From a virus: a stretch of DNA of 64,000 bases. Below, one piece after another: positions 10,593 to 64,000 of this stretch. The stretch covers positions 160,001 through 224,000 of the IMG/VR virus record IMGVR_UViG_3300045988_173726, one strand, 5' to 3'. The notes beneath the pieces are model-generated. The model was not told the origin of the DNA, did no database searches, and worked only from the letters and a program-made list of their open reading frames with translations. The first letter of the stretch is position 1, and each line of letters begins with the position of its first letter. The position numbers and the translations under genes were made by a program.

Positions 10593-11613
10593 GGTAGTAG
10601 TGCTTTTAGCGGCAGTGGTTGCGGGAGTTTCGTTAGCGGCTTGTGGCGGTAAGAAAGACAAGAAAGACTATCGACAGCTATATATGGAGAATGAGAGCAA
10701 GCTAACGGACGCAGACAGCACGATAAAGGGTCTAAGGCTTGCATTAGCGTCATTTGATAAGAAGTATGCGGACGATGCCGAGGTTTCGCAGTATTCGATA
10801 CTTGACACAGGGGCGAAGGTCTTTAACTCGTTTAACGGTAAGATATATCTGGACAGTGATGTAAAGTTTGATAGCACGGATAAGCTGTCTAACACATCTA
10901 CGGTGCAGTTATCCCCGAATATGTCTCTTGCGCCTACGGATAACTGGTCTTTGAACACGACAACCGCATATACGGAGCTGTATAACAGCAACGGAATCTA
11001 CGGAAATATCGAGATGTACAAGGTCTACAACACGATAGACAGTTCGTTTATCAGTGAACAGCTCATAACGCCGTTCTTAAAGGCGAACAATCTGGATAGT
11101 TTGCAGGAGAGGACGCTGTTTGCGGGGAATGTGAATGTAGGTGCAGAGGTAAGGAGTAAGTTACAGGTAAAGAGTACGGTAGACGCAGACGAAGAGAAGA
11201 AGGTAAAGAAGAAAGCGGTTTTATCGAGTGAGGAGCTTGAGTCCGAGCAGGCAGAAGCGGATAAGGCAGTGCAGGAGAGCGAAGCGGCGCGTATGTCGGA
11301 GTATCAGTCAACGCTAGAGAGCGGAAAGACAGAGACAAACGAGAGTGGTGAGACTATTGAGGCTACATTGCCCGAGACGAGCGCGGCGGCAGAGGATGTC
11401 GGAAACGAAGAGGTAACGGTGCTTTTGCCAAAGAGTAAGGACGAGACAGACGATTATATCTTTAGAGTCGGCGTTATGATGTACAACGGGCAGGCTATGG
11501 TTTATAAGTTTGCATATAAGGACGATGACAAGGCTTCTGCGAACGGAGAAATCCTAGATAGCCTAATCAATTCGGTTAAATGCGGGGAAGATATGGTTAG
11601 GTTCGGTCAGTAA
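10579..11613 (+). CDS. lipoprotein
   Basis: Signal peptide MKRSRVVVLLAAVVAGVSLAAC with lipobox LAAC. Overlaps the SNF2 stop by 14 nt. Confidence 0.7.
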   Translation: MKRSRVVVLLAAVVAGVSLAACGGKKDKKDYRQLYMENESKLTDADSTIKGLRLALASFDKKYADDAEVSQYSILDTGAKVFNSFNGKIYLDSDVKFDSTDKLSNTSTVQLSPNMSLAPTDNWSLNTTTAYTELYNSNGIYGNIEMYKVYNTIDSSFISEQLITPFLKANNLDSLQERTLFAGNVNVGAEVRSKLQVKSTVDADEEKKVKKKAVLSSEELESEQAEADKAVQESEAARMSEYQSTLESGKTETNESGETIEATLPETSAAAEDVGNEEVTVLLPKSKDETDDYIFRVGVMMYNGQAMVYKFAYKDDDKASANGEILDSLINSVKCGEDMVRFGQ

Positions 11614-11666: not shown

Positions 11667-11748
11667 GTTTAAGTTATAGAATACCTATAATTAAACCTAG
11701 TCATGTTTCTGCGCTTAGCTTAAGGGAAAAGGAGGTAAGGAAGCGCTA

Positions 11749-13866
11749 ATGGAAAAGCGGTTTTTAGCGGTAGCCGTTTGTCGAGGCGAGGACGGTAAAT
11801 ATCTAGGCTTACGAGTCGTAGACACGAAAGACAGAGTAGCACGGGCAGTAGATGCGAATATCCAGAGTATTCTAACGGTCTTAAAGGGCGGGGATGCTTT
11901 TTATAATTTAAGGCTTGGGGAGGACGGTAAGGTAAAGGTGACGGGGATGAATCCCGCGCGTATGCCAGTTATCGACTTAACGAAGAAGCCGACCGAAGAG
12001 GGGTATTGTAGTGATAAACAGGCGAAGATAGTGTTTGAGGATACGGGTCAGTATAACTTCGTCTGCTATGAGTGGTCGGGTAAGCGAGTCGTGCTTACGG
12101 GTTCTACTCTTGAGGAATATAGGGCGCATCTGGTAAACGATAAGGTTTATGTGACGGCTACGCCGTCCAACGCGCCAAAGGTGGCAGTAAGCCTTAAAGG
12201 TAACGGCGATAAGGTACAGGCGAAGTCCTCACATAGAACGTCAGAGGAGAGAGATAAGTTAATCGAGGAGGCAGAGAAACTTCGGAAAGCGGAGAAAGAG
12301 AAGCGCGGTGAAGATGAATCTGGGAGTCTCGGTGTTTTCCGTGTAATAGACAGCCCGAATACGATACGGAGCGGGGGCGATTTTCGGACAACCGACAATC
12401 TTTACACTTCGCAGATAATCGGTGTAGACGGCGATATGACGCTCGCGCAAAAGTATAAGACAGTTTACGATGACGGGAGTGAGGTAACGGTAGACTTAAA
12501 GTTTATGAAGGTCGCGAACGTGATTAGCGAGTATTGCGGATATTACGGCTCACTGTATCGAGCGATTGAGCATAAGTTTACCGATAAAGACGAGATAGTT
12601 CCGACTGCGGGAGCGTGTCCAGAGTATATTATTTTCAATGTAAAGTATTGTAACAGCCTTACTACGCCAGAGTTAGTGTTTATCCTGCTACATGAGTTAT
12701 CTCATATCGCTCTACAGCACGCTCTGCGTGGTAGAGGAAAGAATCACGATGTTTTTAACATTGCGGCAGACCTGATTATCAATAAGCAGATTTGCGAAGA
12801 GTATAAGGTTTCGCCTACAGGTGGCGTTTCAAAGCTAAGTGGGGAAGGTCAATCAGAAGATAAGTGCGGAATCGCGTTCCCAGACGGCGGTTTGTATAGC
12901 GCGGCGGTAGACTTAACGAAAGACACAGCAGAAAGTATCTATGAAGAGCTTATAAAGACCGCAAAGAAGAGGAAAAATAATAGCCTAGACGGAGATAACA
13001 TGCACAGGGGTACTTCCAAGGGCGACCAGAATAGTGGCGGCGGTGGAAGCTCTGATGGAAATACAAGCGGTAGTGGTGGAGACGGAGAGGGTGAAATCAC
13101 CGAGGTAGACTTTAGAGGGCAGAAGATAAGTTTACCTGCGTCTTTGCGAGATATTGCGGAGTCAGCGCGAGATGCGTCACTGGATAATTCGAGCCTAAAG
13201 GATAAACTAGACGAAGTAGCGCGGCGTGCTATGGTGCATTATAAGCAGTTTGGGCAGGGGCATAGCAACTTAGCGAGGGATATAGAGAAGGTGCTTGCAC
13301 CGCGCATACACTGGAAGAAGTATTTGCAGAAATACCTAATCGAAGCGTCACAGACTTTCGACACTTTTTCGTCTCCAGAGCGAAGATACTTAAGTAGAGG
13401 AATGACATTGCCTGGACCTCGGCATACAGACCCAGATACCATCAAAGGCTTAAAGGTTTGTATAGACACTTCTGGAAGTATAAGCAAAGAGGATTTAGGT
13501 ATCGCGCTCGGACAGGTAGCACAGCTTCTAAAGAAGTATAAAGCGGACGCAGAGGTAGTTTATTGGGACACCGAGGTAGCGGCTACGGGAAAGTTTTCGG
13601 ATATAGCGAGCCTTTATAAGCACGAAGCGAAAGGCGGGGGTGGAACGGATGTAAACTGTATCTTTGAGTATTTCAACTCTAAGGAGTGCAAAGATAAGCC
13701 GAAGTTAATCCTAATCTTCACGGATGGCTATTTCGGGAAGGTAGACATGCATCTGGTGAATCGACTGCACTGCAAGAAGAACATCATTTGGGTAATAAAT
13801 GACGATAACCTAGTAGATTTCAAGAGGCACATTGATTTCGGCAAGGTTGCCGTTTATAAGAACTGA
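11749..13866 (+). CDS. VWA-domain protein with a putative metallopeptidase domain (DUF2201-like) and an N-terminal paralog module
   Basis: HExxH in LLHELSHIALQH, followed by FNIAADLIINK. A G/S-rich linker follows. The MIDAS-like motif VCIDTSGSIS sits in the C-terminal VWA-like region. SD AAGGAGG. Confidence 0.7.
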   Translation: MEKRFLAVAVCRGEDGKYLGLRVVDTKDRVARAVDANIQSILTVLKGGDAFYNLRLGEDGKVKVTGMNPARMPVIDLTKKPTEEGYCSDKQAKIVFEDTGQYNFVCYEWSGKRVVLTGSTLEEYRAHLVNDKVYVTATPSNAPKVAVSLKGNGDKVQAKSSHRTSEERDKLIEEAEKLRKAEKEKRGEDESGSLGVFRVIDSPNTIRSGGDFRTTDNLYTSQIIGVDGDMTLAQKYKTVYDDGSEVTVDLKFMKVANVISEYCGYYGSLYRAIEHKFTDKDEIVPTAGACPEYIIFNVKYCNSLTTPELVFILLHELSHIALQHALRGRGKNHDVFNIAADLIINKQICEEYKVSPTGGVSKLSGEGQSEDKCGIAFPDGGLYSAAVDLTKDTAESIYEELIKTAKKRKNNSLDGDNMHRGTSKGDQNSGGGGSSDGNTSGSGGDGEGEITEVDFRGQKISLPASLRDIAESARDASLDNSSLKDKLDEVARRAMVHYKQFGQGHSNLARDIEKVLAPRIHWKKYLQKYLIEASQTFDTFSSPERRYLSRGMTLPGPRHTDPDTIKGLKVCIDTSGSISKEDLGIALGQVAQLLKKYKADAEVVYWDTEVAATGKFSDIASLYKHEAKGGGGTDVNCIFEYFNSKECKDKPKLILIFTDGYFGKVDMHLVNRLHCKKNIIWVINDDNLVDFKRHIDFGKVAVYKN

Positions 13867-28302: not shown

Positions 28303-30429
28303 ATGAGAGAGTTAGTTTTGCTTCGCGGGTTGCCTGCGAGCGGGAAGTCAAGCTTTGTAGAAGAGTACGGCTTGGGGGCATATACCTTAAGCCTTGATGA
28401 CTTTCGGATTAAGGTAAACAGTGTAGAGCTTACAAGGGACGGCGGCTATACGATTTCACAGGTGACGAATACGCTGGTTTATAAGCAGTTTATGTCTGTT
28501 TTAGTGGCTCGTATGGGGTTAGGCGAGTTCACGGTGGTAGACGCTTGTCATGTAAACAGGAAGAGCGCAAAACAGGTACTAGAGTTAGCCGAGAAGTATA
28601 ATTATCGTGTTAGCGTGGTAAACTTAAATGTCTCTGTAGAAGAGAGCAAGAGAAGAAACCGGTTTCGAGAAGAGTATAAGCGTGTTCCCGATGCGGTGAT
28701 TGATAGGATGGCAAGTAGGTGGGAAGATGACTTGCTTTTGCCGGAGATTAAGAAAGAGGATTTTGCTGACTTTCTAAGGCTTAGTGTAGACGAGTTAAAG
28801 GGAAGGTATCGGGGCGTAGTCGTAATCGGAGACATTCATAGCAGTGTGTATCCGCTTAGAAAGGTCATTAAGCAGTTCGATGACAGATTTCTCTATGTGT
28901 TTGTCGGAGACTATTTTGACAGAGGAGACTCGCCCGTAGAGACCTTTAAGCTTGTGGAAGAGCTGTCTACGAAAGAGAATATCGTGATGCTCCTTGGAAA
29001 CCATGAGCATCACATGCGGGATTATCTTTTTGGGGAGTTTGACTCGCTTCCGAGACAGGCAAAAGAGACCTATAGAGCGTTTAAGGAAGCAGGGATTTCG
29101 GAGGTTCGGGTTCGAGAGTTTTACGATAGGCTTCGAGATTATTATGCTTTTAAGGTGTTTGGGAAGAGGTATTTTGTGTGCCATGCGGGAGTCCCGTTTA
29201 TCCCCGAGAGAGCTAAGTTTATCAGTACCAGACAGCTTACAGGTGGTTTAGAGGACGGAGCTGGAGAGATTGATACGATTTACACAGCGAACGCGCTTAA
29301 GCGTGGCTTGGTAACGGATGACGGAGAGTATTTAGGATTTATTCAGATTCACGGTCATTTGAATACGCCGTCAACTATCTTTAGCTATAGCCTTGAGGAT
29401 AGTGTAGAGTTTGGTGGAAACTTAAAGTATGCGGTAATCAATCCGAACAGGGTGACGCCGTCTATTTGCAAGGTAAGTAACAAGTTTGCTGGGGTAGGTG
29501 AGAGGGCTACAGGGATTACGGTAGCAGATGCCCGTGTAAACGCACTTTTGCAGAAGGTAGGAATCAGAGTTAAGGATTTAGGCGACTATTACAGCGTAAA
29601 CTTTTCTCCGACAGTGTTTTATAACAGGTATTGGAACGAGTATACGGTAAAGGCACGGGGCTTGTTTATCGAGAAGGGTACGGGAAAGGTCGTTGCGCGG
29701 AGTTACGACAAGTTTTTTAATGTCGGTGAGCTGGATAGCGAAGAAGGGATTGCGGAGAAGCTTAGATTTCCTGTTACCTTTCGGGAGAAGGCAAATGGAT
29801 TTTTAGGGATTGCCGCTATGTATCGTAAGACAGGGGAAGAGAAGCGTGAGTTAAAGCTGTTTTCTAAGTCTATGGACAAGGGACAGTTCGTTTCGATGCT
29901 TCGCGAGGCGTGGGATAGCTTAAAGCCAGAGACACGGTATGTCCTAAAGAGAATTATGGTAGAGCGGCATGTGTCTGCGATTTTTGAGGTAATCCACCCG
30001 AACGACAGGCATATCGTAGATTATAAGGACGCGACTAAGCTGTATCTCTTAAACTTTGTAGAGAACTCATTAAGCACGAAGGTTTACGCGCCAGAGGAGT
30101 TACTGGGAGAGGACGGTTTGTCGGTAATTTTAAGCGACAGCGGAATAAGTCTGCCGAAAGTGCTTGCCATAGCGCATGGTAGGGACGAGTGGCGTAAAGC
30201 GGTAACGGAGCTTTCGCTTAGAAAAGACATTGAGGGTGCGGTATCGGTAGACAAGCGCGGGTTTATGGTGAAAGTAAAGACGAATTGGTATCGCGACCTT
30301 AAGGCTAGCAGAAAGGCGCTTGAGTACGGCAGAGACATAAACGCTTTCACGCATTACGCGATTAAGCACGGTCTTGAGAAAGAGAGCGTGGTTGTGATTA
30401 AGCGGCAGATGGATAAGGAGGGACGGTAA
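28303..30429 (+). CDS. trifunctional RNA repair enzyme: polynucleotide kinase, metallophosphoesterase and RNA ligase (bacterial Pnkp-type order)
   Basis: P-loop LRGLPASGKSSF. Calcineurin-type motifs VVVIGDIHS, GDYFDRGD and LLGNHEH. Ligase motif I EKANGF, motif IV IEGAVS and motif V MVKVKTNWY. Confidence 0.75.
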   Translation: MRELVLLRGLPASGKSSFVEEYGLGAYTLSLDDFRIKVNSVELTRDGGYTISQVTNTLVYKQFMSVLVARMGLGEFTVVDACHVNRKSAKQVLELAEKYNYRVSVVNLNVSVEESKRRNRFREEYKRVPDAVIDRMASRWEDDLLLPEIKKEDFADFLRLSVDELKGRYRGVVVIGDIHSSVYPLRKVIKQFDDRFLYVFVGDYFDRGDSPVETFKLVEELSTKENIVMLLGNHEHHMRDYLFGEFDSLPRQAKETYRAFKEAGISEVRVREFYDRLRDYYAFKVFGKRYFVCHAGVPFIPERAKFISTRQLTGGLEDGAGEIDTIYTANALKRGLVTDDGEYLGFIQIHGHLNTPSTIFSYSLEDSVEFGGNLKYAVINPNRVTPSICKVSNKFAGVGERATGITVADARVNALLQKVGIRVKDLGDYYSVNFSPTVFYNRYWNEYTVKARGLFIEKGTGKVVARSYDKFFNVGELDSEEGIAEKLRFPVTFREKANGFLGIAAMYRKTGEEKRELKLFSKSMDKGQFVSMLREAWDSLKPETRYVLKRIMVERHVSAIFEVIHPNDRHIVDYKDATKLYLLNFVENSLSTKVYAPEELLGEDGLSVILSDSGISLPKVLAIAHGRDEWRKAVTELSLRKDIEGAVSVDKRGFMVKVKTNWYRDLKASRKALEYGRDINAFTHYAIKHGLEKESVVVIKRQMDKEGR

Positions 30430-55409: not shown

Positions 55410-55724
55410 TTGGGCAACGATAATAAATCTTCGGAGGTAGTAGGGATTATCTCTGTGATAGCTTTTGTAAGCGTGCTTGTTCTGTTGTCATGGTGGATTT
55501 CGTCTACTGCATTGGAGAGGTTTCAAGCGTCAAAGGGTAGTGATTCAGACACTACACGGGTATACGCTGTGTTTAACCGTGCAACTGTAAATTATTGGAC
55601 GAAAGCCCGTTTAGACGCACTGAAAGTAAAGTACGGAACAGAGATAGCAGAGCCTTTGACAGAGGATATGTCAATGGAAAGCGTATGTATTCGCGTATTC
55701 TCATTAGGTATCATAACGATTTAA
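55410..55724 (+). pseudogene. truncated member of membrane-protein paralog family B (N-terminal third only)
   Basis: Has the TM plus TRVYAVFNRATVNYWTKARLDALKVKYGTEIAEP, as in the next two genes, but stops after 104 aa. Confidence 0.5.
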
Positions 55725-55739
55725 GCGAGGGAAACAGTT

Positions 55740-56600
55740 TTGCAGTACAATAGCGACAATGTAATGAGGCGGCTATTACAGCTGTGTGCAACGATTTTTC
55801 TCATGGTGATTACGGTTTCCGTTATCGTGTCGGTAGTTTCTGAACAGAAGGCATTTGAGGAAAACAGTAAAACAGAGGATACTCGGGTAAGCGCTGTTTT
55901 TGAGCGAGCAACAGTTGTATATTGGAGTAAGAGTCGTTTAGACGGGTTGAAGGTAAAGTACGAGGCAGAGATAGCCGAGCCGAGGATAGATTATTGGACT
56001 CGGGAGTATTTGGATACTTCATATGTTAGGTATCAGCAGGGGTTTATAGATATTCCTGCTAGGACAGCTTATTTGCCAAAGTATCGTCCGACAAGAAGGA
56101 ATCGCTTGAAGGTAGAGACTCTAGTAAGGTCTACGAGGTATGTGTATAGCTGGGTAGTTCCGCTTACGCTTTATAGGAACGAAATTAATTCCGAGGTAAA
56201 CCCAGACAGTGAGGCGGTATGTGATATTATTTTCCAGTCCGGAGAAACAGAGGAGTATACCTTCAAGGCAAAGTATTCAGTGAGTGAGAGAGCCTTTCAT
56301 ATAAGTACTTATGTGTCGGATGGGTGGTCTGACAGGCAAGAGGGAATTTTTGATGTTCATTTTAAGTTGAAAAACTTAGTTTCTGGAAGAAAGTATCTTT
56401 TAGGTAGCCAAGAGTTTATTGCAGATGACAGCGGGGAGCGGGATTGCAGTATAGACATACCAAATTACGGTCTGCGTTCATATTTGTTTAATGAAGATTC
56501 TTCTTATCGTGTGCTGTTGCATAGTATGGACGATAGCGGGGTGCTTAAAGAGGAGTTAGCGTTTGATGTGTCGTTAGGAGATATAGACTGGAAGAGATGA
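55740..56600 (+). CDS. single-pass membrane protein, paralog family B
   Basis: TM, then TRVSAVFERATVVYWSKSRLDGLKVKYEAEIAEP. C-terminal FDVHFKLKNLVSGRKYLLGSQEFIADDSGERDCSIDIPNYG. Confidence 0.65.
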   Translation: MQYNSDNVMRRLLQLCATIFLMVITVSVIVSVVSEQKAFEENSKTEDTRVSAVFERATVVYWSKSRLDGLKVKYEAEIAEPRIDYWTREYLDTSYVRYQQGFIDIPARTAYLPKYRPTRRNRLKVETLVRSTRYVYSWVVPLTLYRNEINSEVNPDSEAVCDIIFQSGETEEYTFKAKYSVSERAFHISTYVSDGWSDRQEGIFDVHFKLKNLVSGRKYLLGSQEFIADDSGERDCSIDIPNYGLRSYLFNEDSSYRVLLHSMDDSGVLKEELAFDVSLGDIDWKR

Positions 56601-57523
56601 GCAGAGAACGGACGGATGCAGACGATTTTAGCTTGGCTATGGTTGGTGCTATTGTGGTTGCGGTGGTGCTAATTTTTGTAATAGCTGGGCTTGTGACGCA
56701 TTGGGAGAAGAAAGAGGCTTCTGAAAACTTAAAAGGCGACCCGTCAAGGGTAAACGCAGTGGTGGAGTCCGCACGGGTAACATATTGGTCGAAAGATAGG
56801 CTTGACGGGTTAAAGATACAGTTCGGGGGCGAAGTTTATACGCCAAAGGTTACACCTGTGGCTCGGAATTATAGCGTAGTTCACCGAGGACATGGGAACT
56901 CTGGTGTTGGAGTTTATGAGAAGTCGGATGGGAAGCTTGGGATTGGCTTTGTATCTGGAACAGGTTACGGATGGTATATTGGTTCGGATGGAGAGACGGG
57001 GACAGGCTGGGTTGTGAGTGGTAGTAATACGCCGACAACGCGCGAGAGCGTAACTGCTGTTAGGTATCTGTACAGCTTTAATGTCCCTGTAGGTGTGTAT
57101 GCGAATGACGGTGGCAGTCTTGTAAATCCAGACTGCGGTGCAGAGTGCAGTGTAATTTTGCCTAATGGTGGGATAGAGAGGTTTTTATTTTCTGCGAAGT
57201 ATGACTTAGTGAATCGAGGCTACGACATATTGTCGGTATCAAAGACAGGGCTAGGAAGTGCCTATGACATTGAGTGTGGAGTATATAGGGTAAATCTTCG
57301 ACTTAATAACCTTACGGTCGGAAAGACTTATATTCTTGGCGGGTATCGGTTTACGGCAGACAGTAAGGAGCGTGAGTGTGTGATAGATATTCCGAATTAC
57401 GGAGTTTATTACAGGGAGCTTGGCGACCAAGCTGTGTATCGGGTTGACTTATCGAGTATAGACGAGCAGGGGAATGCGGAGCTTGAGCTACGGTTTAATG
57501 TATATTGCGGTCGGGTAGATTAA
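56597..57523 (+). CDS. single-pass membrane protein, paralog family B
   Basis: TM, then SRVNAVVESARVTYWSKDRLDGLKIQFGGEVYTP. C-terminal YRVNLRLNNLTVGKTYILGGYRFTADSKERECVIDIPNYG. Confidence 0.65.
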   Translation: MSRERTDADDFSLAMVGAIVVAVVLIFVIAGLVTHWEKKEASENLKGDPSRVNAVVESARVTYWSKDRLDGLKIQFGGEVYTPKVTPVARNYSVVHRGHGNSGVGVYEKSDGKLGIGFVSGTGYGWYIGSDGETGTGWVVSGSNTPTTRESVTAVRYLYSFNVPVGVYANDGGSLVNPDCGAECSVILPNGGIERFLFSAKYDLVNRGYDILSVSKTGLGSAYDIECGVYRVNLRLNNLTVGKTYILGGYRFTADSKERECVIDIPNYGVYYRELGDQAVYRVDLSSIDEQGNAELELRFNVYCGRVD

Positions 57524-57551
57524 GCGGCGCAAGCCCTTTGTACAAATCTTA

Positions 57552-57580
57552 TTGACAGGTTTCTATTAGCCTGTTATGAT
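57552..57580 (+). promoter_or_regulatory. sigma-A type promoter
   Basis: TTGACA, a 17 nt spacer, then TATGAT. Confidence 0.65.
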
Positions 57581-57625
57581 TATCTCATAGCAAAGCATTT
57601 AAGGCTTGGGTGGGGGAGATAGAAG

Positions 57626-58375
57626 ATGTATAACAGAGGGCTAATGGACGATATGATTGTTGTGGGGACTGGGGTTTTTCTGGCTCTGCTTTTATGTGGG
57701 GGTTTAATTGTCCATGAGGAGATAAAGGATAGAACAGGGGATGTTAGCCCGATAGAGGTTGAGTTCTTGTCGGTGTCGCCTTGCCTTTACGATAAGACAC
57801 CGATAGGTGGAACACTGCTTTCCGCAAGCGGAGAGAATAGCGGGTTAAAGACGGGTGACCCGATTTCGTATCAGTCGGGGCGTGCAGGGTATGTTTATCA
57901 GCAGAACAGTGGGCTTGGTGTTTATACATATTCCTCAAACGATATGTTGTTTTCGTGCTACGCAGAGGTTGTTCCGACACAGGACGCGAAGGGGAACTGG
58001 AATGCAGGATTTAATTTGTTGTCCCCGAGCGGAGATACAGTAAATGTAGGCTTTAAGGCAAGTTCAAATCGCAGAAAGACAGAATACAGCTTGATTAGCG
58101 GGGGTAACACTTCGCTCGACACAGGTATTTATGGTTTCATGCTAAAGTTTAGTGGTTTAACGGTGGGAGATAGATATGTGTTTGCGGGGCAGGAGTTGCA
58201 TGTTTCCGAGGACGGAAGTGCGATAGCGAGTGTTCTTACGCCTTGCGGGGGAGTCGGGTTTACTCGGGAAGGCACGCTTTCACAGCATGGCTATCATTAT
58301 CTAAATCTGGTTAAGATTTTGGATAGTGGCACGGTAGAGAAAGAGATTGAGTTTAGCATCGAGATGGCACATTAA
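57626..58375 (+). CDS. single-pass membrane protein, paralog family B
   Basis: TM. C-terminal GFMLKFSGLTVGDRYVFAGQELHVSEDGSA. Confidence 0.65.
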   Translation: MYNRGLMDDMIVVGTGVFLALLLCGGLIVHEEIKDRTGDVSPIEVEFLSVSPCLYDKTPIGGTLLSASGENSGLKTGDPISYQSGRAGYVYQQNSGLGVYTYSSNDMLFSCYAEVVPTQDAKGNWNAGFNLLSPSGDTVNVGFKASSNRRKTEYSLISGGNTSLDTGIYGFMLKFSGLTVGDRYVFAGQELHVSEDGSAIASVLTPCGGVGFTREGTLSQHGYHYLNLVKILDSGTVEKEIEFSIEMAH

Positions 58376-58388
58376 GGGGGAGTGGGAG

Positions 58389-58583
58389 ATGGTTTTCTCG
58401 GTAATGCTCTGTATTGCGAGTCTGTGTATGCTCGTTAATACGCTGAAAGAGAAGGAAGTTCCTGCCGAGCGGTTTGTCGGGTTTGGGATTCTGTTTATTT
58501 TGTGGGGTGTTACCGTCTTGTTTCCGAGCTTCGGAGAAGCCCCTGCCGAGCTGGTGAGGTCAATGTTTAATGGTGGAAGTTAG
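58389..58583 (+). CDS. small two-TM membrane protein
   Basis: Start moved to ATG 58389 (SD AAGGGGGAG). 64 aa, hydrophobic. Confidence 0.5.
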   Translation: MVFSVMLCIASLCMLVNTLKEKEVPAERFVGFGILFILWGVTVLFPSFGEAPAELVRSMFNGGS

Positions 58584-58832
58584 ACGGTTTATTCAGCGCA
58601 TCAGAAGCGATATTTGCCGTTACAGGATTCGCCTTTATTTGTATGATACTGCGAAAATTCGCAGTATCATCGTGGTAACTATTTGTGTGGTTATAGCTTG
58701 TCTTTATATATACAGCGTTGGACAGGCGCGTTTAGAAGAAATTCGGTATATAAGGGGACACACTGTAGTTAGGTTTTAAGTATCGTAGCGTTCCGCGATT
58801 ATCCGATAAAGCTAAAGAGGGGGTATATAGGG

Positions 58833-59510
58833 TTGTTTGAGAAATTGTATGGGCGATACAAAAATGTATTTGATGGCATATTAGTAGCCTTTGCGCTAGT
58901 TGTATTTGTTTGCTTTGTCTTATTGTTTTGTGGGTGGGTCAGCCCGTCTTGCAAGCGGCATAGTCCCATCACAAGTTCCGTGAAAGTAAGCTTCGAGTCA
59001 GTAACGCTTTGTTATTATTCATACTCTCCTGTTAGCTGTAGTTGGATGTACGGAGACAATATAGCGAGTCCAGAGCCGACAGTTGGGGCAGTCGGAATAA
59101 TGTCTAAAAGCGAATTGTATTCCTATCCGTCTTTCCCTTTAACTGTAACAGACAGCAATAGCGGTTCTAAGATGGCTGGTTGCGCTCTTCTTGTGAACAA
59201 TAATCCCGCAGATTGCAGTGTTTATCTGGACAGTGACAATACGCTTTCTGCCGAAGCTAAATTCGAGTGTTCGAAGGAACAGCTAGGTATATTGGGCGGT
59301 CGTGTTAGGTTTAGTGGCTTGACTTACGGGAAGAACTATGTGTTTGACGGAAAGAGATTGGATGTGCAAGAGGACGGCACAGCGGTCGGAGAGTTTGTGT
59401 CTATGGACGTTTACGGAGGGGTTTATTATATCCCGCTATTGGAAGTTGATGCAGGAGAGCAGATTAGTCTATTGGAGATAGGAGTCAAGAGACTCGTTCC
59501 TTGGGATTAA
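58833..59510 (+). CDS. single-pass membrane protein, paralog family B
   Basis: TM. C-terminal GGRVRFSGLTYGKNYVFDGKRLDVQEDGTAVGEF. Confidence 0.65.
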   Translation: MFEKLYGRYKNVFDGILVAFALVVFVCFVLLFCGWVSPSCKRHSPITSSVKVSFESVTLCYYSYSPVSCSWMYGDNIASPEPTVGAVGIMSKSELYSYPSFPLTVTDSNSGSKMAGCALLVNNNPADCSVYLDSDNTLSAEAKFECSKEQLGILGGRVRFSGLTYGKNYVFDGKRLDVQEDGTAVGEFVSMDVYGGVYYIPLLEVDAGEQISLLEIGVKRLVPWD

Positions 59511-59566
59511 CGGCGGTATGCGTTAAGCGTGCAGAAGTTAGATAGTGTGAGTTTGGAGGTGTAATT

Positions 59567-59674
59567 GTGAAGTTTAATCGAACGGCAGTCAGTATGGTTG
59601 TAGTTATCTGTATAGGACTTTTAATATTGAGTGTGCTTTCATTTGTTGAGGCAGGGGGTTTAGGTAGAATATGA
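59567..59674 (+). CDS. 35 aa hydrophobic peptide (not in the ORF track)
   Basis: GTG start after the strong SD GGAGGTG. Translation VKFNRTAVSMVVVICIGLLILSVLSFVEAGGLGRI. Its stop overlaps ATG 59671 (ATGA). Confidence 0.4.
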   Translation: MKFNRTAVSMVVVICIGLLILSVLSFVEAGGLGRI

Positions 59675-60516
59675 TTGTAACAGCGGAGACTTTTATTCCT
59701 GCCCTTTTGGGGATTATGCTTGGCTTGATGGTGATATTTATTGCCAGCCTTTGGGTAATCAAGCGTTATGTGTTGTCTGCCTCTCTTGCTATATTAGCCG
59801 CATGTGCGGTATTTACTGTATTTATAGGCTCTATCATATGGTTTTGCAACGATGCTCCAGTAGATAAGCCAGATTTTATACCTAGGGCAAGTAACGAAGT
59901 AATTTCTGGCAGTAACACTAGTATTAACTTCGAATCCTTAACAGTTACAGGCTATTCTGTTGGTTCTCCAGTTCCCTGTAGTTACTCTTCTAACGGGAGT
60001 GTAGGCGGTTCAGCTTCGATTCAGAGTGGTAGTGTTAATGGAGATATGAATACTAGCTTTAATTGGTATGCCTATCCTATGACCGTGCCTGTTGATAGCC
60101 AAAATTCTGGGAGCTTAGTGTCTTTTGGCATTCTGTTTGATAACTTGTCAGCTAATTGCAGTGTAAATCTTTCTTCTCCTGCTACAAACGGAGACAACAA
60201 GTATATTTTGAACGCGAAAGCCGACTTTAATAACGGGGTGTCAGAGTCGTTTGGAATTGCTGGTGGTAAGGTGCGGTTTAGCGGGTTGCAGTACGGAAAG
60301 AGTTATGCTTTTGGTGATAAGAGCCTTACAGTGGCAGAGGATGGAACGGCAGAGGTAGAGTTTACTGTTCCAGACTACGGGTATGTGGACAGTATGTTTC
60401 CAGATTTGTATTCGGTTAGGCTTGTAAAAGCCGAGGGAAATTCCTTGGAGACAGAGTTAATTTTGTATGTGAAGCGTCCAATAAAGAGGGCTGTGGATGT
60501 GCGAGCGGGGAAGTGA
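59671..60516 (+). CDS. membrane protein, paralog family B
   Basis: Two N-terminal hydrophobic helices. C-terminal GGKVRFSGLQYGKSYAFGDKSLTVAEDGTAEVEF. Confidence 0.65.
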   Translation: MIVTAETFIPALLGIMLGLMVIFIASLWVIKRYVLSASLAILAACAVFTVFIGSIIWFCNDAPVDKPDFIPRASNEVISGSNTSINFESLTVTGYSVGSPVPCSYSSNGSVGGSASIQSGSVNGDMNTSFNWYAYPMTVPVDSQNSGSLVSFGILFDNLSANCSVNLSSPATNGDNKYILNAKADFNNGVSESFGIAGGKVRFSGLQYGKSYAFGDKSLTVAEDGTAEVEFTVPDYGYVDSMFPDLYSVRLVKAEGNSLETELILYVKRPIKRAVDVRAGK

Positions 60517-60546
60517 ATTTGGCTAAAAATTTTCCTGTAAAAACAG

Positions 60547-60575
60547 TTGACAGCTTAGAGGCAATCTGCTAGACT
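60547..60575 (+). promoter_or_regulatory. sigma-A type promoter for the tRNA array
   Basis: TTGACA (60547-60552), a 17 nt spacer, then TAGACT (60570-60575). Confidence 0.6.
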
Positions 60576-60738
60576 ATGGTTGTGGTTAAGAGAGAGGCGG
60601 GAGCGGCTGAATCGTCATGGGACTTTTACAGGTTCTGCGCATCTCAAGACCACTTAAGAGAGGGGATAGCGTTATCTCCTAGCGCAGAGGGTACTGCGGG
60701 ATGCGCGGCGTTTAACAGAGTTTAAGCGCCGTAAGGAA

Positions 60739-60811
60739 CGGGATGTGGCTCAAGTGGTAGAGCGCTTGCTTTGGGAGCAAGACGTTGCAGGTTCAAGTCC
60801 TGTCATTCCGA
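60739..60811 (+). tRNA. tRNA-Pro (anticodon TGG)
   Basis: Hand-folded 73 nt cloverleaf. Acceptor CGGGATG/CATTCCG, D GCTC/GAGC, anticodon arm CTTGC-TTTGGGA-GCAAG, T GCAGG-TTCAAGT-CCTGT. Confidence 0.85.
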
Positions 60812-60884
60812 TTTACCGTATGGGGATGTACGGTAAGCCACTTTGCCTCCTTACAATGTGGGATTTTCCAGACGGATAGACGGT

Positions 60885-60950
60885 GTGGCGGTAGTGTAGA
60901 GGGAGCATGACGCTAAGGCGTAGGAGCGGGTTCGAGCCTCGCCCGTCACA
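60885..60950 (+). ncRNA. tRNA-like element lacking a normal anticodon arm (E2)
   Basis: Acceptor GTGGCGG/CCGTCAC. D-like GTGT-AGAGGGA-GCAT. T arm GCGGG-TTCGAGC-CTCGC. The anticodon-arm position holds only ACGC-TAAG-GCGT. 66 nt total. Confidence 0.5.
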
Positions 60951-61130
60951 TTAGCTGACTTCGGTCAGCGAACATTTTCCTCATCTCCAACAAACAGAGC
61001 GGCGAGTGCGTGAATACCATTCGCCTCGGATACGCGACATATGGTCGCCGCTGGGTGCAAGTCCTAGGTATCCGATTTGCTAGAGCATCCGTGAACAGTG
61101 CTTTAGCGGTTAACCAATCAAATTGTCTTG

Positions 61131-61190
61131 GAAGTCAGTAGTTTAGTGGTAAAACGCTTTGAGACGCGGGTTCGAGTCCCGTCTGACTTC
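61131..61190 (+). ncRNA. tRNA-like element lacking an anticodon arm, with a G(-1):C73-type 8 bp acceptor helix (E4)
   Basis: G + AAGTCAG / CTGACTT + C. D arm GTTT-AGTGGTA-AAAC. T arm GCGGG-TTCGAGT-CCCGT. Only 10 nt (GCTTTGAGAC) lie between the D and T arms. 60 nt total. Confidence 0.55.
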
Positions 61191-61260
61191 TTCCGTCCCT
61201 CGGAATTTCCCCCGTTGGCTTGAGAAGGCTCACCGACACACAACTCCGAGGAGACGGTTT

Positions 61261-61306
61261 ACGGGCGCGGTAAGGCGCAGTGGGGGTTCAACTTCCCCCG
61301 CCCGTT
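61261..61306 (+). ncRNA. minimal acceptor plus T-arm element (E5)
   Basis: Acceptor ACGGGCG/CGCCCGT. T arm GGGGG-TTCAACT-TCCCC with a G:T at the 53-61 position. 14 nt linker. 46 nt total. Confidence 0.35.
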
Positions 61307-61368
61307 CTGTGCGGTCGTTGTCTTGCAAAATACCTGCCAAGTGAGACAGCGCTCCGCACTCCCCCCAA

Positions 61369-61442
61369 GGAAAGGTGGCTCAATAGGTGAGAGCATTCGG
61401 CTCATAACCGAACGGTTGCGGGTTCGAGTCCCGCCCTTTCCA
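61369..61442 (+). tRNA. tRNA with anticodon CAT (elongator Met or Ile2/lysidine type; not an initiator)
   Basis: 74 nt cloverleaf. Acceptor GGAAAGG/CCTTTCC (1-72 paired, so not fMet). D GCTC/GAGC. Anticodon arm TTCGG-CTCATAA-CCGAA. T GCGGG-TTCGAGT-CCCGC. Confidence 0.85.
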
Positions 61443-61455
61443 CTAGAGTTTTTAG

Positions 61456-61519
61456 ACGACAGTAGTTTACGGGAATGCGCCAAAGGCGCGGAGAGAGGTT
61501 CGATTCCTTTCCTGTCGTA
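61456..61519 (+). ncRNA. tRNA-like element with a triloop hairpin in place of the anticodon arm (E7)
   Basis: Acceptor ACGACAG/CTGTCGT. T arm AGAGG-TTCGATT-CCTTT (plus one extra C). Central hairpin GCGCC-AAA-GGCGC. No clear D stem. 64 nt total. Confidence 0.45.
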
Positions 61520-61587
61520 TAGCCGTAGTTCCGTGATACTCCATATCTGCTACGGTGAATCCTTTCTGGTACCTGCTGGTGCTTGGT

Positions 61588-61652
61588 TGTGCGGTAGCTT
61601 AACGGCTAGAGCTAGGCGTAGTCCGATGCGGGTTCGACTCCCGCCTGCACAA
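61588..61652 (+). ncRNA. tRNA-like element lacking an anticodon arm (E8)
   Basis: Acceptor TGTGCGG/CTGCACA. D arm GCTT-AACGGCTA-GAGC. T arm GCGGG-TTCGACT-CCCGC. Only 15 nt (TAGGCGTAGTCCGAT) sit where about 22-23 nt are expected. 65 nt total. Confidence 0.55.
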
Positions 61653-61826
61653 TTTGTCCGAAGGTCGGGCAAAAATACTATGGTTTCGATTACTCGGTAG
61701 GGCGTTCGTTTAAGCGGAAAGACGGCATATTGCCATGTAGGTTCGACTCCTACGCGCCTACTCGTAACTGTAGAGTTTGGTTGGGCTTTGCAGTTACGGG
61801 ATACAAGCCCAGAGTTTGTATCCTAC

Positions 61827-61900
61827 GCTTTGTTAGTTCAGTTGGGAGAACGCACGGCTGTAAAGCGTGGTCGCCATTGGTTCGAGTCCAATACAGAGCG
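61827..61900 (+). tRNA. atypical class I tRNA with anticodon GTA (Tyr-like)
   Basis: Acceptor GCTTTGT/ACAGAGC. D GTTC-AGTTGGGA-GAAC. Anticodon arm CACGG-CTGTAAA-GCGTG with a G:G at 31-39. 6 nt variable region and no long variable arm. T ATTGG-TTCGAGT-CCAAT. Confidence 0.6.
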
Positions 61901-61929
61901 TTAGACCATATGGTCTAAAGAGTTTATCT

Positions 61930-62008
61930 GCTGTCGTGGTGGAATAGGTATACACGGCGGACTTAAAATCCGCTGGCTTCGAGCCATGTTCAAATCCGAC
62001 CGTCAGCA
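61930..62008 (+). pseudogene. tRNA-Leu(TAA)-like with an unpaired T stem (probable pseudogene)
   Basis: Good D arm (GTG/CAC), anticodon arm GCGGA-CTTAAAA-TCCGC and variable hairpin GGCT-TCG-AGCC. The T-stem strands CCATG / CCGAC do not pair, and the acceptor has a T:T mismatch. Confidence 0.5.
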
Positions 62009-62170
62009 TTGCTTGTGCCATAGATGCCCTAAGTATTGTTCCTTGGAGCAGGATGCAGGCATCACAAGTAGAACTTCCGTCTAAGCGAGGCGAATGCTCC
62101 AGTCCTTGCGATGACGGGGAGAGCCGAAGTTCAAATCATTAGAGTAGGCATAGTTATAGGCTTTCAGTGT

Positions 62171-62258
62171 GGAGAGGTACTCAAGTGGTTTAAGAGAACG
62201 GTCTTGAAAACCGTGAGGTCGTGAAAACGGCGCGAGGGTTCAAATCCCTCCTTCTCCG
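62171..62258 (+). tRNA. tRNA-Ser (anticodon TGA)
   Basis: 88 nt class II fold. Acceptor GGAGAGG/CTTCTCC. Anticodon arm ACGGT-CTTGAAA-ACCGT. Long variable arm. T GAGGG-TTCAAAT-CCCTC. Confidence 0.85.
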
Positions 62259-62398
62259 TTAGAGGTGTTTTGCTGGTTCACCTCTAAACCTCCTTCTTTT
62301 TGGAAACAGCCGTTCGCTTATTTCGGGCAAGATAAGCGGAAAAGTAAGTACTGTGGCTAAGGACGCAGTGTTTACCAGAGGGATGGCGACCCTCATAT

Positions 62399-62486
62399 GG
62401 AGAGATACTCAAGTTGGTGAAGAGGACAGGTTGCTAACCTGTTAGGTCGCGAAAGTGGCGCAAGGGTTCAAGCCCCTTTCTCTCCG
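62399..62486 (+). tRNA. tRNA-Ser (anticodon GCT)
   Basis: 88 nt class II fold. Acceptor GGAGAGA/TCTCTCC. Anticodon arm ACAGG-TTGCTAA-CCTGT. Long variable arm. T AAGGG-TTCAAGC-CCCTT. Confidence 0.85.
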
Positions 62487-62543
62487 TTCTGCCGTTTATT
62501 TCCCTAAGTGTGTGCTTTGGGAGCGAGCGGCAGTATTAAACAG

Positions 62544-62593
62544 TCCTATATAGATGTATTAAACTCAAGATAGTTTAGCATCTCCCTGTAGGA
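62544..62593 (+). repeat. structured 50 nt repeat, copy 1
   Basis: tcctatatagatg...catctccctgtagga. The outer stem TCCTA/TAGGA and inner stem AGATG/CATCT are conserved in copy 2. Confidence 0.7.
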
Positions 62594-62751
62594 CGTAGAT
62601 TACTTGCCTCGTGTGAGCGTAAAGCGTTCACAGAAAAGTATGGGCGTTGCACACGCGCCTATGCACTGCAGAATGCCGCACTGTAAATGCGGAAGCCGAA
62701 TGGCATAAAGTGTCTGCGGGGACAGTGGCTAGGGCGGGCGCTGTCCGATTT

Positions 62752-62825
62752 GAGGCTGTAGCTTATCTGGATAAAGCGACAGATTCCTAATCTGTAGACG
62801 GTAGGTTCGAGTCCTATCAGCCTCA
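62752..62825 (+). tRNA. tRNA-Arg (anticodon CCT)
   Basis: 74 nt. Acceptor GAGGCTG/CAGCCTC. D GCTT/AAGC. Anticodon arm ACAGA-TTCCTAA-TCTGT. T GTAGG-TTCGAGT-CCTAT. Confidence 0.85.
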
Positions 62826-62832
62826 TTGTTTT

Positions 62833-62904
62833 GCCGTGATAGCACAATGGCAGTGCATTTGATTTGTAATCAAAAGGTTATCGGTTCGAGTCCGATTTGC
62901 GGCT
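62833..62904 (+). tRNA. tRNA-Thr (anticodon TGT)
   Basis: 72 nt. Acceptor GCCGTGA/TTGCGGC (two G:T pairs). D GCAC/GTGC. Anticodon arm TTTGA-TTTGTAA-TCAAA. T ATCGG-TTCGAGT-CCGAT. Confidence 0.8.
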
Positions 62905-62907
62905 TAT

Positions 62908-62987
62908 GCCCGCATGGTGGAATAGGCAGACACGCTGGATTTAGGTTCCAGTGGGAAACCGTGTAGGTTCAAATCCTACTGTGGGCA
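62908..62987 (+). tRNA. tRNA-Leu (anticodon TAG)
   Basis: 80 nt. Acceptor GCCCGCA/TGTGGGC. D GTG/CAC. Anticodon arm CTGGA-TTTAGGT-TCCAG. 11 nt variable arm. T GTAGG-TTCAAAT-CCTAC. Confidence 0.8.
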
Positions 62988-62988
62988 T

Positions 62989-63037
62989 TCCTATACAGAT
63001 GTATCAACACAAGATAGTTGGGCATCTCCCTGTAGGA
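62989..63037 (+). repeat. structured 50 nt repeat, copy 2
   Basis: tcctatacagatg...catctccctgtagga, starting 2 nt after tRNA-Leu(TAG). Confidence 0.7.
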
Positions 63038-63114
63038 TGCGTGGCTATCGTAGTTGTTTACCCCTTATGACTGCGGTAGCCCCTTTGTTTGTATAGGGGA
63101 TAGAGGAGGTAGAG

Positions 63115-63456
63115 ATGAGCGAAAGACAGGGAGATATGAGTTATAAGGGCTTTGTGGGCGAGGTCAAGTATTCGGAAGAGGACGGAAAGTTTATCGGTCG
63201 AGTGCTTGATATTGAGGATGCAGAGCTTGAGTTTGCGGGTAGCTCCGTGAGTGAGTTGCAGGAGGGCTTTCGTGCGGTGGTTGACCGTTATCTGGAGCTT
63301 AAGGGTGACGACCAAGATGTAGAAATCGAGGTTACGCTAAAGAAAAGCCTTTTGCGGGCGGTTGTAGAGTGTGCGGAAGAGCAGGAAGTGACGATTGACG
63401 AGTTTGTGAGCGCGGCGCTGTTTGACTATTGCAGTGCGAATTACGGGGAAGAGTAA
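63115..63456 (+). CDS. hicB: HicB-family antitoxin (HicB-like N-domain plus ribbon-helix-helix), with no adjacent HicA
   Basis: YKGFVGEVKYSEEDGKFIGRVLDIEDAELEFAGSSVSELQEGFRAVVDRYLE matches the HicB-like antitoxin pattern. C-terminal RHH-like VTLKKSLLRAVVECAEEQEVTIDEFVSAAL. SD GGAGG. Confidence 0.7.
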   Translation: MSERQGDMSYKGFVGEVKYSEEDGKFIGRVLDIEDAELEFAGSSVSELQEGFRAVVDRYLELKGDDQDVEIEVTLKKSLLRAVVECAEEQEVTIDEFVSAALFDYCSANYGEE

Positions 63457-63462
63457 CGCGCG

Positions 63463-64000
63463 GTGATTACGAATAGAGTATTTTCGGCAGTAAAACAGAG
63501 CCTTGACAAAGCGACCAGTGCAGAGGATGTACTGGTCGTTGCTGTATCTGGGGGCGCGGATAGTATGTGTTTATTAGACACTGTGCGACAGATACGGAGA
63601 CAGGTCGGGAAAGTAGTTGTGTGTCACTTGCATCATGGGGTAAGGACGGACGGTAGTGCAGAGCGGGATATGCTCTTGGTAAAGGGGTATTGTGACGGAT
63701 GCGGGATACCCTTCTTTTATCGGCGGGTAGATGTGCCGAGTATTGTAGAGGAAACGGGGAAGTCGGCAGAGCTTGTCGGGAGAGAGCTTCGGTATCGGTT
63801 TTTTAACGAGGTAGGGTCGTGTTACGGTTCGTATAAGATTCTGACTGGGGCAAATGCGAATGATTCTGTAGAGACAGTGCTTATGCACTTAATTCGTGGG
63901 GCTTCGGTAGATGGTTTATGCGGGATACGGGAAGTAAACGGTAGGGTAGTTCGTCCTTTGGTCGGGGTAAGTCGGAGAGAGATAGAGGCTTATGTTAAGG
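63463..64000 (+). CDS. tilS: tRNA(Ile)-lysidine synthase, 3-prime end outside the window (absent from the ORF track because it has no stop)
   Basis: GTG 63463. Translation VITNRVFSAVKQSLDKATSAEDVLVVAVSGGADSMCLL..., with the PP-loop SGGxDS, then LTGANANDSVETVLMHLIRG. The frame is open to base 64000. Confidence 0.8.
   Translation, partial: MITNRVFSAVKQSLDKATSAEDVLVVAVSGGADSMCLLDTVRQIRRQVGKVVVCHLHHGVRTDGSAERDMLLVKGYCDGCGIPFFYRRVDVPSIVEETGKSAELVGRELRYRFFNEVGSCYGSYKILTGANANDSVETVLMHLIRGASVDGLCGIREVNGRVVRPLVGVSRREIEAYVK

Follow-up and report, generated by a model that had tools for sequence, protein, structure and literature searches.

Several tRNA-like non-coding RNAs that do not serve in decoding have been described. 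RNase P and RNase Z release mascRNA from a longer precursor, after which it is CCA-tailed, whilst the tRNA-like domains of tmRNA and of the bacterial Y RNA YrlA comprise an acceptor stem, a T arm and a D-like loop without an anticodon; the vtRNAs of the herpesvirus MHV68 form a cloverleaf in which the anticodon arm is retained. In case of the MHV68 TMERs, tRNase Z cuts after the tRNA-like element and thus frees hairpins (PMC4838037). The Streptococcus SpF41_sRNA (RF02435) is found in strain-specific or horizontally acquired, accessory genome regions (PMC6064168, PMC9569102). In phages, the tRNA regions of T4-type genomes carry the species I/II RNA genes, to which no function is assigned (PMC2330249), and jumbo phages can carry Ro/TROVE together with a tRNA-like partner RNA (PMC7824862). 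Mukai et al. (2017) reported polycistrons of irregular tRNAs, some of them with a G at position -1, charged by histidyl-tRNA synthetase (HisRS) and unused in translation, for which a regulatory role was suggested (PMC5389517). Here we analyse a 64,000-nt stretch of the IMG/VR virus record IMGVR_UViG_3300045988_173726 (positions 160,001–224,000; this whole stretch is referred to as the window), which holds an array of seven truncated tRNA-like elements of 45–66 nt (E2, E3, E4, E5, E7, E8 and E9) on the + strand between a tRNA-Pro and a tRNA-Tyr gene. Downstream of a promoter at 60547, these elements alternate with conserved hairpin RNAs; they are a variety of known tRNA-like non-coding RNA.

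Seven tRNA-like elements without an anticodon

An acceptor stem and a T arm are present in all seven elements and an anticodon in none:

E2, 60885–60950, + strand: 7-bp acceptor stem, D arm, 4-bp stem with tetraloop replacing the anticodon arm, T arm, discriminator A; 39.6 bits with RF00005
E3, 61027–61075, + strand: 48-nt minihelix type with 7-bp acceptor stem, 5-bp hairpin and T arm with loop UGCAAGU; found by the scanner, the minimum free energy (MFE) fold and RNAalifold
E4, 61131–61190 (RF00005 match 61132–61190), + strand: G-1, 7-bp acceptor stem, D arm, 10-nt linker, T arm, C73; 48.4 bits
E5, 61261–61306, + strand: acceptor stem of 6–7 bp, short GG-containing hairpin, T arm
E7, 61456–61519, + strand: invariant 7-bp acceptor stem, weak D-like region, central hairpin of variable length, T arm
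E8, 61588–61652, + strand: 7-bp acceptor stem, D arm, 15-nt linker, T arm; 40.5 bits with RF00005
E9, 61697–61762, + strand: weakest element, with bulged acceptor stem, GGCA-UAU-UGCC hairpin and T arm; 20.4 bits with the tRNA-Sec model

A complete acceptor stem (7/7 pairs) with a discriminator base is found in E2, E3, E4, E5, E7 and E8. The T arm, a 5-bp stem with a 7-nt loop of TTCRA type, occurs in all seven, its register in E5 shifting between the window and its relatives. A D arm with the GG of G18G19 and with U8 and A14 is seen in E2, E4 and E8 and is weak or absent in E3, E5, E7 and E9. The same division appears with the Rfam tRNA model RF00005 (gathering score 29 bits): E2, E4 and E8 pass it with the scores given above, in matches that run end to end (positions 1–71) with the anticodon arm deleted, whilst E3, E5, E7 and E9 score under the threshold. 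No element shows the 5-bp stem and 7-nt loop of an anticodon arm; here, the covariance-model alignments delete 15–18 model positions.

A preliminary description of the locus, made by reading the letters, had reported at least four such elements (E2, E4, E7 and E8), had named E5 as a more reduced one and had assigned acceptor, T and D arms to E2, E4 and E8. The elements themselves and these arms are borne out by the analysis, although the count was too low, since E3, E5 and E9 belong to the array as well. Two details need to be corrected. E2 was said to have no anticodon arm: the anticodon loop is indeed missing, but a 4–5 bp stem is retained at the position of the anticodon stem. In E7, the GCGCC-AAA-GGCGC hairpin is present in the window as described, but it is not fixed: among relatives, the central hairpin is between 5 bp (3-nt loop) and 15 bp (7-nt loop) long and is never an anticodon arm. 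The claim that the elements cannot decode codons holds, because none has an anticodon, and so does the expectation that a tRNA finder would miss them: ARAGORN, run on the array, calls none of the seven and reports the nine canonical tRNAs of the operon only.

A strict scanner, in which 7/7 acceptor pairs, 5/5 T-stem pairs and the T-loop motif were required, gave matches confined to the array in the 64-kb window and no match on either strand of 1.23 Mb of reversed control sequence. As both acceptor strands sit in one short unit, a split or permuted tRNA was ruled out.

Conservation and covariation in related genomes

We compared 22 arrays of this phage family, 90–95% identical to the array of the window. 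Eight of the genomes, namely that of the window and seven others in IMG/VR, were obtained independently of the array spacers, six via a neighbouring protein and two via an E4-type pattern; 15 metagenome contigs (14 of them distinct) were recruited with an exact 23-nt anchor in spacer 1. E2 to E8 are present in all relatives whose contigs span the slots, and the truncated lengths of E2, E3, E4, E5 and E8 are identical in every genome whose contig spans them. A full-length tRNA in one of these slots, which in the preliminary description was named as the finding that would speak against it, was seen in none of the 22 genomes.

The predicted compensatory changes were found as well. For a stated structure of 88 pairs in E2, E3, E4, E5, E7 and E8, 99.9% of the 1832 stem cells of the alignment form a standard pair, compared to 39–47% when the 3' partner is slid, and across 21 distinct sequences two stem cells are unpaired. 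Six pairs have changed on both sides, in a set of arrays whose overall divergence is small; the corresponding number is 0.4 ± 0.6 after shuffling, with six reached in none of 500 shuffles, and 0–2 after sliding. A further 18 pairs vary on one side only, via G-U. Of the six compensatory double changes, three fall in the acceptor stem of E4 (pairs 2, 4 and 6), two in E2 (GC to AU at acceptor pair 6, GC to UA at T-stem pair 3) and one in E5 (CG to UA at acceptor pair 6). In E8, acceptor pairs 5 and 6 vary through G-U with pairing kept. E9 is the exception to this stem conservation: roughly half the genomes show an A-C mismatch in the E9 acceptor stem. Many of the conserved pairs are G-U, whose complements on the opposite strand (A-C) would not pair, so that the RNA of the + strand is what selection acts upon. 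Thus, E2 to E8 are RNA structures under purifying selection and not decaying pseudogenes, the latter being strongly disfavoured.

Pair counting of the stated structure was relied on here because RNAalifold, run on 910 columns, recovered E3, E4, E7 and the spacer hairpins but gave spurious long-range pairs for E2, E5 and E8. In the eight independent genomes, the share of variable columns is 0–1.4% in tRNA-Pro and the tRNA with anticodon CAU, 3–18% in the truncated elements, 41% in E7 (a value inflated by an indel in the central hairpin), 0% (0/73) in spacer 1 and about 6% (up to 6.5%) in spacers 5 and 7. This pattern suggests that the truncated elements are constrained in shape more than in sequence, and that some of the spacers are constrained in sequence.

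In their flanks, the elements resemble the operon's true tRNAs. CCA is encoded by none of the truncated elements and by none of the nine canonical tRNAs; N73 is followed by UU in E2, E3, E4 and E8, invariantly in the 22 genomes, and likewise in seven of the nine canonical tRNAs, whilst position -1 is U in E2, E3, E5 and E8. UU after the discriminator is a preference of RNase Z on CCA-less precursors, as is U at -1 of bacterial RNase P. When the elements were compared with 561 phage tRNAs from which the anticodon arm had been removed, 10 of the top 15 matches of E3 were tRNA-Pro and the best match of E4 was a tRNA-His. Judged by this comparison, E4 looks like tRNA-His: its G-1 stands opposite C73 in 22/22 genomes, including the most divergent one (L137), in which three acceptor pairs of E4 have changed.

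The operon and its hairpin spacers

The tRNA operon spans 60547 to approximately 63110 on the + strand. The promoter at 60547 is the sole promoter-like site in 60300–63300, and a terminator within the array, looked for in the 3-kb region, was not found. ARAGORN identifies nine canonical tRNAs, for Pro, CAU, Tyr, Leu, Ser, Ser, Arg, Thr and Leu:

60547–60575, + strand: sigma-70-like promoter TTGACA-17-TAGACT with extended -10 TG; hexamers and spacing kept in relatives
60577–60738, + strand: structured leader with several hairpins; MFE -59 kcal/mol, z = -3.0
60739–60811, + strand: canonical tRNA-Pro(UGG) (ARAGORN; RF00005 64.6 bits)
61369–61443, + strand: canonical tRNA with anticodon CAU, for Met, or Ile2 after lysidine modification (ARAGORN, RF00005; 0 variable columns)
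61826–62988, + strand: second half of the operon with canonical tRNAs Tyr, Leu, Ser, Ser, Arg, Thr and Leu (ARAGORN, Rfam)

In the second half, spacers rich in hairpins lie between most tRNAs, with Arg-Thr and Thr-Leu almost abutting. Within the array, hairpins occupy every spacer, and most spacers almost end to end:

Spacer 1, 60812–60884, + strand: two hairpins, the loop of the second carrying GCCUCCUUA; 0/73 columns vary in the eight independent genomes
Spacer 2, 60951–61026, + strand: GCUGAC-UUCG-GUCAGC hairpin, invariant single-stranded C/U-rich stretch (60968–60994) and covarying hairpin
Spacer 3, 61076–61130, + strand: hairpin followed by a variable single-stranded tail
Spacer 4, 61191–61260, + strand: long bipartite hairpin; z = -4.05
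Spacer 5, 61307–61368, + strand: hairpin and C-rich 3' tail; z = -4.6
Spacer 7, 61520–61587, + strand: hairpins whose loops and sequence differ among relatives, stems kept
Spacer 8, 61653–61696, + strand: hairpin
Spacer 9, 61763–61825, + strand: two strong hairpins; z = -6.7

Covariation extends to these spacers: one pair of the spacer 2 hairpin at 61001–61026 (columns 125/145) is U-A in 14 sequences and C-G in six, and the long hairpin of spacer 4 (61193–61257) shows three double-sided pair changes in L137. The C/U-rich single strand of spacer 2 is unchanged in 22/22 genomes.

The loop of spacer 1 (60839–60861) carries GCCUCCUUA, similar to the 3' terminus of 16S rRNA. Three copies of CCUCCUU are present on the + strand of the window, each of them inside the operon (including 62289–62295); its enrichment in the array was dropped as evidence, being confounded by strand composition.

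Further observations concern the region from tRNA-Tyr onwards. The IS605-orfB-I (TnpB omega) RNA is present there in two shortened copies, at 62543–62662 and 62988–63102 (47–48 bits, gathering score 94); complete copies of 183–191 bits occur in relatives (L002, 446–659; L003 and L004, approximately 10630–10846), one of them directly after tRNA-Leu(UAG). In L006 (4368–5845), a 1.5-kb insertion separates tRNA-Thr from tRNA-Leu. The slot of tRNA-Tyr (61826–61901 in the window) is taken by another tRNA in L003 (4730–4801), L004 (4732–4805) and L005 (4735–4808): with an anticodon loop of 6 or 8 nt and no isotype assigned by ARAGORN, this is another non-canonical tRNA.

Comparison with known RNA families

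The nearest curated family is SpF41_sRNA, whose layout is shared by E2 together with the hairpin downstream of it: a long acceptor helix, a D-like region (GUAGU.UA.AGGGA), a short stem with a 4-nt loop, a T arm and a 3' hairpin. E2 aligns over model positions 1–105 and has this architecture, but membership was rejected, as E2 with its hairpin reaches 34.1 bits (E = 0.0013 in a 554-nt search) and E4 16.1 bits against a gathering score of 52; the other truncated elements gave no match to this model. SpF41_sRNA also differs in being a single stand-alone gene with a terminator rather than a module of an operon.

The MHV68 TMERs are alike in that they are virus-encoded, repeated units in which a non-decoding tRNA-like element stands beside hairpins. 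They differ in belonging to a eukaryotic herpesvirus, in their transcription by RNA polymerase III as separate units and in having precursor-microRNA hairpins that feed Dicer, and there is no relation in sequence. mascRNA/menRNA (RF01684) is a similarly small tRNA-like RNA of approximately 60 nt with a reduced anticodon arm, but it is the product of a eukaryotic nuclear long non-coding RNA; E4 (19.3 bits) and E8 (16.6 bits) stay well below the mascRNA-menRNA gathering score of 42.5. Unlike tmRNA and YrlA, the phage elements hold both acceptor strands in one short unit. ARAGORN found neither a tmRNA nor a tag reading frame, tmRNA_permuted gave 21.2 and 11.6 bits against 47, the YrlA match (RF02553; 16.9 bits against a gathering score of 69) overlaps tRNA-Pro, and the window proteins scanned include no recognised TROVE protein. 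T4 species I/II, ROOL and GOLLD are likewise structured RNAs inside phage tRNA clusters, but they are long (>100 to ~600 nt) and not tRNA-shaped minimal units. The irregular tRNA polycistrons differ in that anticodon arms are kept, and they stem from acidobacterial metatranscriptomes and are linked to toxin-antitoxin loci.

We found no literature description of tRNA-like elements in phages that lack the anticodon arm, although older work on T4 and T5 may have escaped this search, which covered few subscription journals. The remark in the preliminary description that its author was not aware of such a phage system must be qualified in view of the architecture of SpF41_sRNA, the MHV68 arrays and the frequency of such elements in unrelated viral contigs.

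Truncated elements in other viral contigs

IMG/VR was scanned with a degenerate pattern (D arm, up to 24 nt, T arm), which yields lower bounds. Among the matches listed, 45 of 123 have an acceptor stem of at least 6/7 pairs, and several elements from other loci pass the Rfam tRNA threshold at 55–62 nt. From 37 short scanner matches, 12 were removed as artefacts nested in real tRNAs by means of ARAGORN overlap and canonical-length alternatives. After artefact removal, unrelated viral loci still account for at least 25 clean truncated elements (up to 66 nt); ten of these elements do not fit the search pattern and were found beside 601 ordinary tRNAs. Encoded CCA is present, among the matches listed, in 6 of the 49 elements of up to 68 nt (counted before filtering) compared to 185 of 402 elements of normal length from the same loci. 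By sequence, truncated elements are thus apparently widespread across unrelated phages. BLAST against GenBank phages matched canonical tRNAs alone, with no match to E2 and E4 with their flanks, and the exact E4 pattern had no matches in IMG/VR because relatives differ by a few bases.

Two loci deserve description. The contig L064 holds three paralogous truncated elements of 54–61 nt (351–410, 2053–2113 and 3557–3610), each directly preceding the start of a paralogous open reading frame (ORF) with a conserved 5' end. In the Enterococcus phage phiEF17H (L151; Kochikohdavirus), a ROOL RNA (1405–1981, 265 bits) lies inside a tRNA array, and just upstream of it we find an unannotated 53-nt candidate (1139–1191) with 7/7 acceptor pairs and 4/5 T-stem pairs, which is at least 98.6% conserved in 36 records. 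The candidate is also carried by the Kochikohdavirus phage EF1TV; as these phages can be cultured, experiments on it are feasible. A Pfam scan of the 97 ORFs within 1.5 kb of elements in unrelated loci revealed no recurrent partner gene, with scattered TnpB (two genes), homing endonucleases and one Rnl1.

On L064, a HEARO RNA is present at 7959–8172. The contig L090 carries a GOLLD RNA (11675–12097, 187 bits) in a tRNA array with three clean 66-nt truncated elements; a fourth match of 61 nt was rejected as an artefact nested in tRNA-Gln. The unrelated contigs L011 (14024–14077), L087, L130 (4454–4501) and L133 (354–400) share an RNA with GACAGGATGA-AGTAGTTTAA-GGTAAAAC...GGGTTCGATTCCC, which displays the motifs of both D and T arm but no acceptor helix to go with them.

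Possible function of the array

A punctuation role fits the anatomy of the array best. In this plausible but tentative reading, the elements would be non-decoding processing modules for RNase P and RNase Z, whose cuts release the hairpin RNAs and yield CCA-tailed mini-tRNAs. One long transcript from the 60547 promoter would hold all seven tRNA-shaped modules, each recognised through the same shape by the tRNA-maturing enzymes of the host: RNase P would cut at the 5' end and RNase Z just behind the discriminator, before the CCA-adding enzyme takes over. The transcript would be cut at every module; the cuts would free the conserved hairpin RNAs in between, at least some of which are the likely cargo, and would leave stable mini-tRNAs of 45–66 nt with CCA ends. 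The anticodon arm, and most of the D arm in E3 and E5, may have been lost because processing needs neither.

Several features are in keeping with the processing role. The single promoter-like site and the lack of an internal terminator define one transcription unit, in which tRNA and tRNA-like elements alternate with hairpin spacers that themselves covary, and the canonical tRNAs of the second half likewise flank hairpin spacers. Reduction is graded, from E2/E8 over E4 to E3/E5, towards a minihelix of acceptor and T arm. To this can be added the constraint on shape alone, the flank signature common with true tRNAs and the precedent of the MHV68 TMERs. Other observations weigh against it. The full D arm (GG, U8, A14) of E2, E4 and E8 exceeds a minimal substrate of RNase P and RNase Z, the invariant His-type G-1:C73 of E4 points to recognition beyond shape, and other phages carry truncated tRNA-like elements singly, that of L024 being followed by a separate terminator; in such cases the tRNA-like RNA itself looks like the product. 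Moreover, the conservation of spacer 1 in the 15 metagenome relatives is a consequence of the anchor search itself, all six double changes trace to a single genome, L137, and a search of the window for complements of the invariant single-stranded spacer motifs returned only the motifs themselves and no target. The D arms, the His signature of E4 and the stand-alone elements elsewhere keep a trans-acting role alive.

Such a role could take two forms. As mimics of the top half of a tRNA, mini-tRNAs may act in trans as decoys for host factors that read the acceptor end or the elbow, such as immune effectors with cleaving or modifying activity on the CCA end, and would leave decoding undisturbed because they have no anticodon. 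CapRel/toxSAS and MenT act on the acceptor end of tRNAs. This possibility, which we consider unlikely though not negligible, draws on the elbow nucleotides of D and T arm kept in E2, E4 and E8, on the stand-alone elements in many unrelated viral contigs, and on the equipment of the phage for tRNA warfare (a Pnkp-like kinase/phosphatase/Rnl1 fusion, a TilS-like gene and nine tRNAs). It is also consistent with the properties of Cas12a3, which reads the acceptor end: it recognises tRNAs by their CCA tail, T arm and acceptor stem, and cleavage is retained on truncated tRNAs (PMC12851939). It sits less well with the heterogeneous architecture of the array, in which E3 and E5 have no proper D arm, with sequences that evolve faster than those of real tRNAs and with the lack of a recurrent neighbour gene among the 97 ORFs. 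Decoys for anticodon nucleases, one of the roles put forward in the preliminary description, are unlikely, because the anticodon loop recognised by those enzymes is absent, a point that counts against the decoy reading as well. Alternatively, some elements might be aminoacylated by anticodon-independent synthetases and serve as carriers outside ribosomal decoding, with E4 as a histidine acceptor. G-1:C73 is the main identity element for HisRS, and microhelices carrying it are charged; in E4 it is invariant in the 22 genomes, even in L137, and the best arm-less match is a tRNA-His. Irregular tRNAs with G-1 have been reported to be charged yet unused in translation (PMC5389517). We nevertheless regard charging as improbable: the other elements are without known anticodon-independent identity sets, having neither G3:U70 (E2 has G4-U69) nor a long variable arm, the His-like features of E4 could be leftovers of ancestry, and the scan of window proteins revealed no aminoacyl-tRNA-dependent transferase. 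The wider proposition, that phages commonly encode anticodon-less mini-tRNAs which are matured and CCA-tailed in the manner of tRNAs and act in trans as decoys or sponges, or as charged carriers (histidine in case of E4), is doubtful; if true, it would bring an RNA-based layer into the contest for tRNAs.

Two further readings give the elements no role as RNA. Functionless tRNA pseudogenes, left to decay after deletions caused for example by homing-endonuclease or recombination events in the cluster, might explain why the elements vary more than the canonical tRNAs, why truncation is unequal in extent, and why E9 has its A-C mismatch in roughly half the genomes and E7 its large indels; the T-arm motif in tRNA genes is a known target of SegB-type endonucleases (PMC2330249). 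Decay is at odds with the near-complete pairing with six double-sided changes and two unpaired cells in 21 distinct sequences, the retention of E2 to E8 in every spanning genome with lengths fixed except for the central hairpin of E7, the invariant flanking UU and U at -1, and the recurrence of elements of the same kind in unrelated phages, so that we see this as highly improbable. A role at the DNA level, as hairpins for recombination or transposition (such as remnants of IS200/IS605-type elements or homing endonucleases, or their target sites), would be in line with the omega-RNA (IS605-orfB-I) remnants in the operon and the full copies in relatives, the HEARO RNA near the truncated elements of L064 and the two TnpB genes among the 97 neighbouring ORFs. 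The many conserved G-U pairs, which become A-C mismatches on the other strand, show selection to be strand-specific and on RNA; T loop, D loop, U8 and A14 follow the tRNA consensus, and all elements are oriented like the tRNAs. This explanation, too, is barely credible.

As tRNA finders skip these genes, phage tRNA islands appear emptier than they are: here, approximately 1.2 kb of seemingly empty spacer is a string of selected RNA modules. If these are processing modules, phages would exploit the tRNA maturation machinery in order to produce sets of small hairpin RNAs, a principle known from a herpesvirus and from engineered tRNA-guide arrays, though we came across no account of it for phages. 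A role in trans would make the elements a novel type of RNA counter-measure or cofactor where phage and host compete over tRNAs.

Phage and neighbouring genes

The window is part of an uncultured jumbo phage, whose IMG/VR relatives are contigs of 115–268 kb, and encodes FtsK/HerA-type ATPases, gyrase and DNA methylases. Window proteins show only 29–35% identity to the nearest cultured phages; a close cultured relative was not found, the best protein identity to cultured phages being 35%. A single chain of 708 amino acids (28303–30429) combines a P-loop kinase (polynucleotide kinase), a metallophosphatase and an Rnl1-type RNA ligase in a Pnkp-like fusion and is a one-chain tRNA-repair kit, with its nearest cultured homologues in Fusobacterium and Staphylococcus phages (32–35% identity). 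Approximately 2 kb downstream of the tRNA with anticodon CAU, a TilS-like PP-loop protein is encoded at 63466–64000; this proximity suggests that the tRNA may be a lysidine-modified tRNA-Ile2 and not a tRNA-Met. Directly upstream of the operon, 55410–60516 encodes tandem paralogous small proteins with an N-terminal membrane anchor and a shared C-terminal motif (e.g. GLTVGKxY...EDG).

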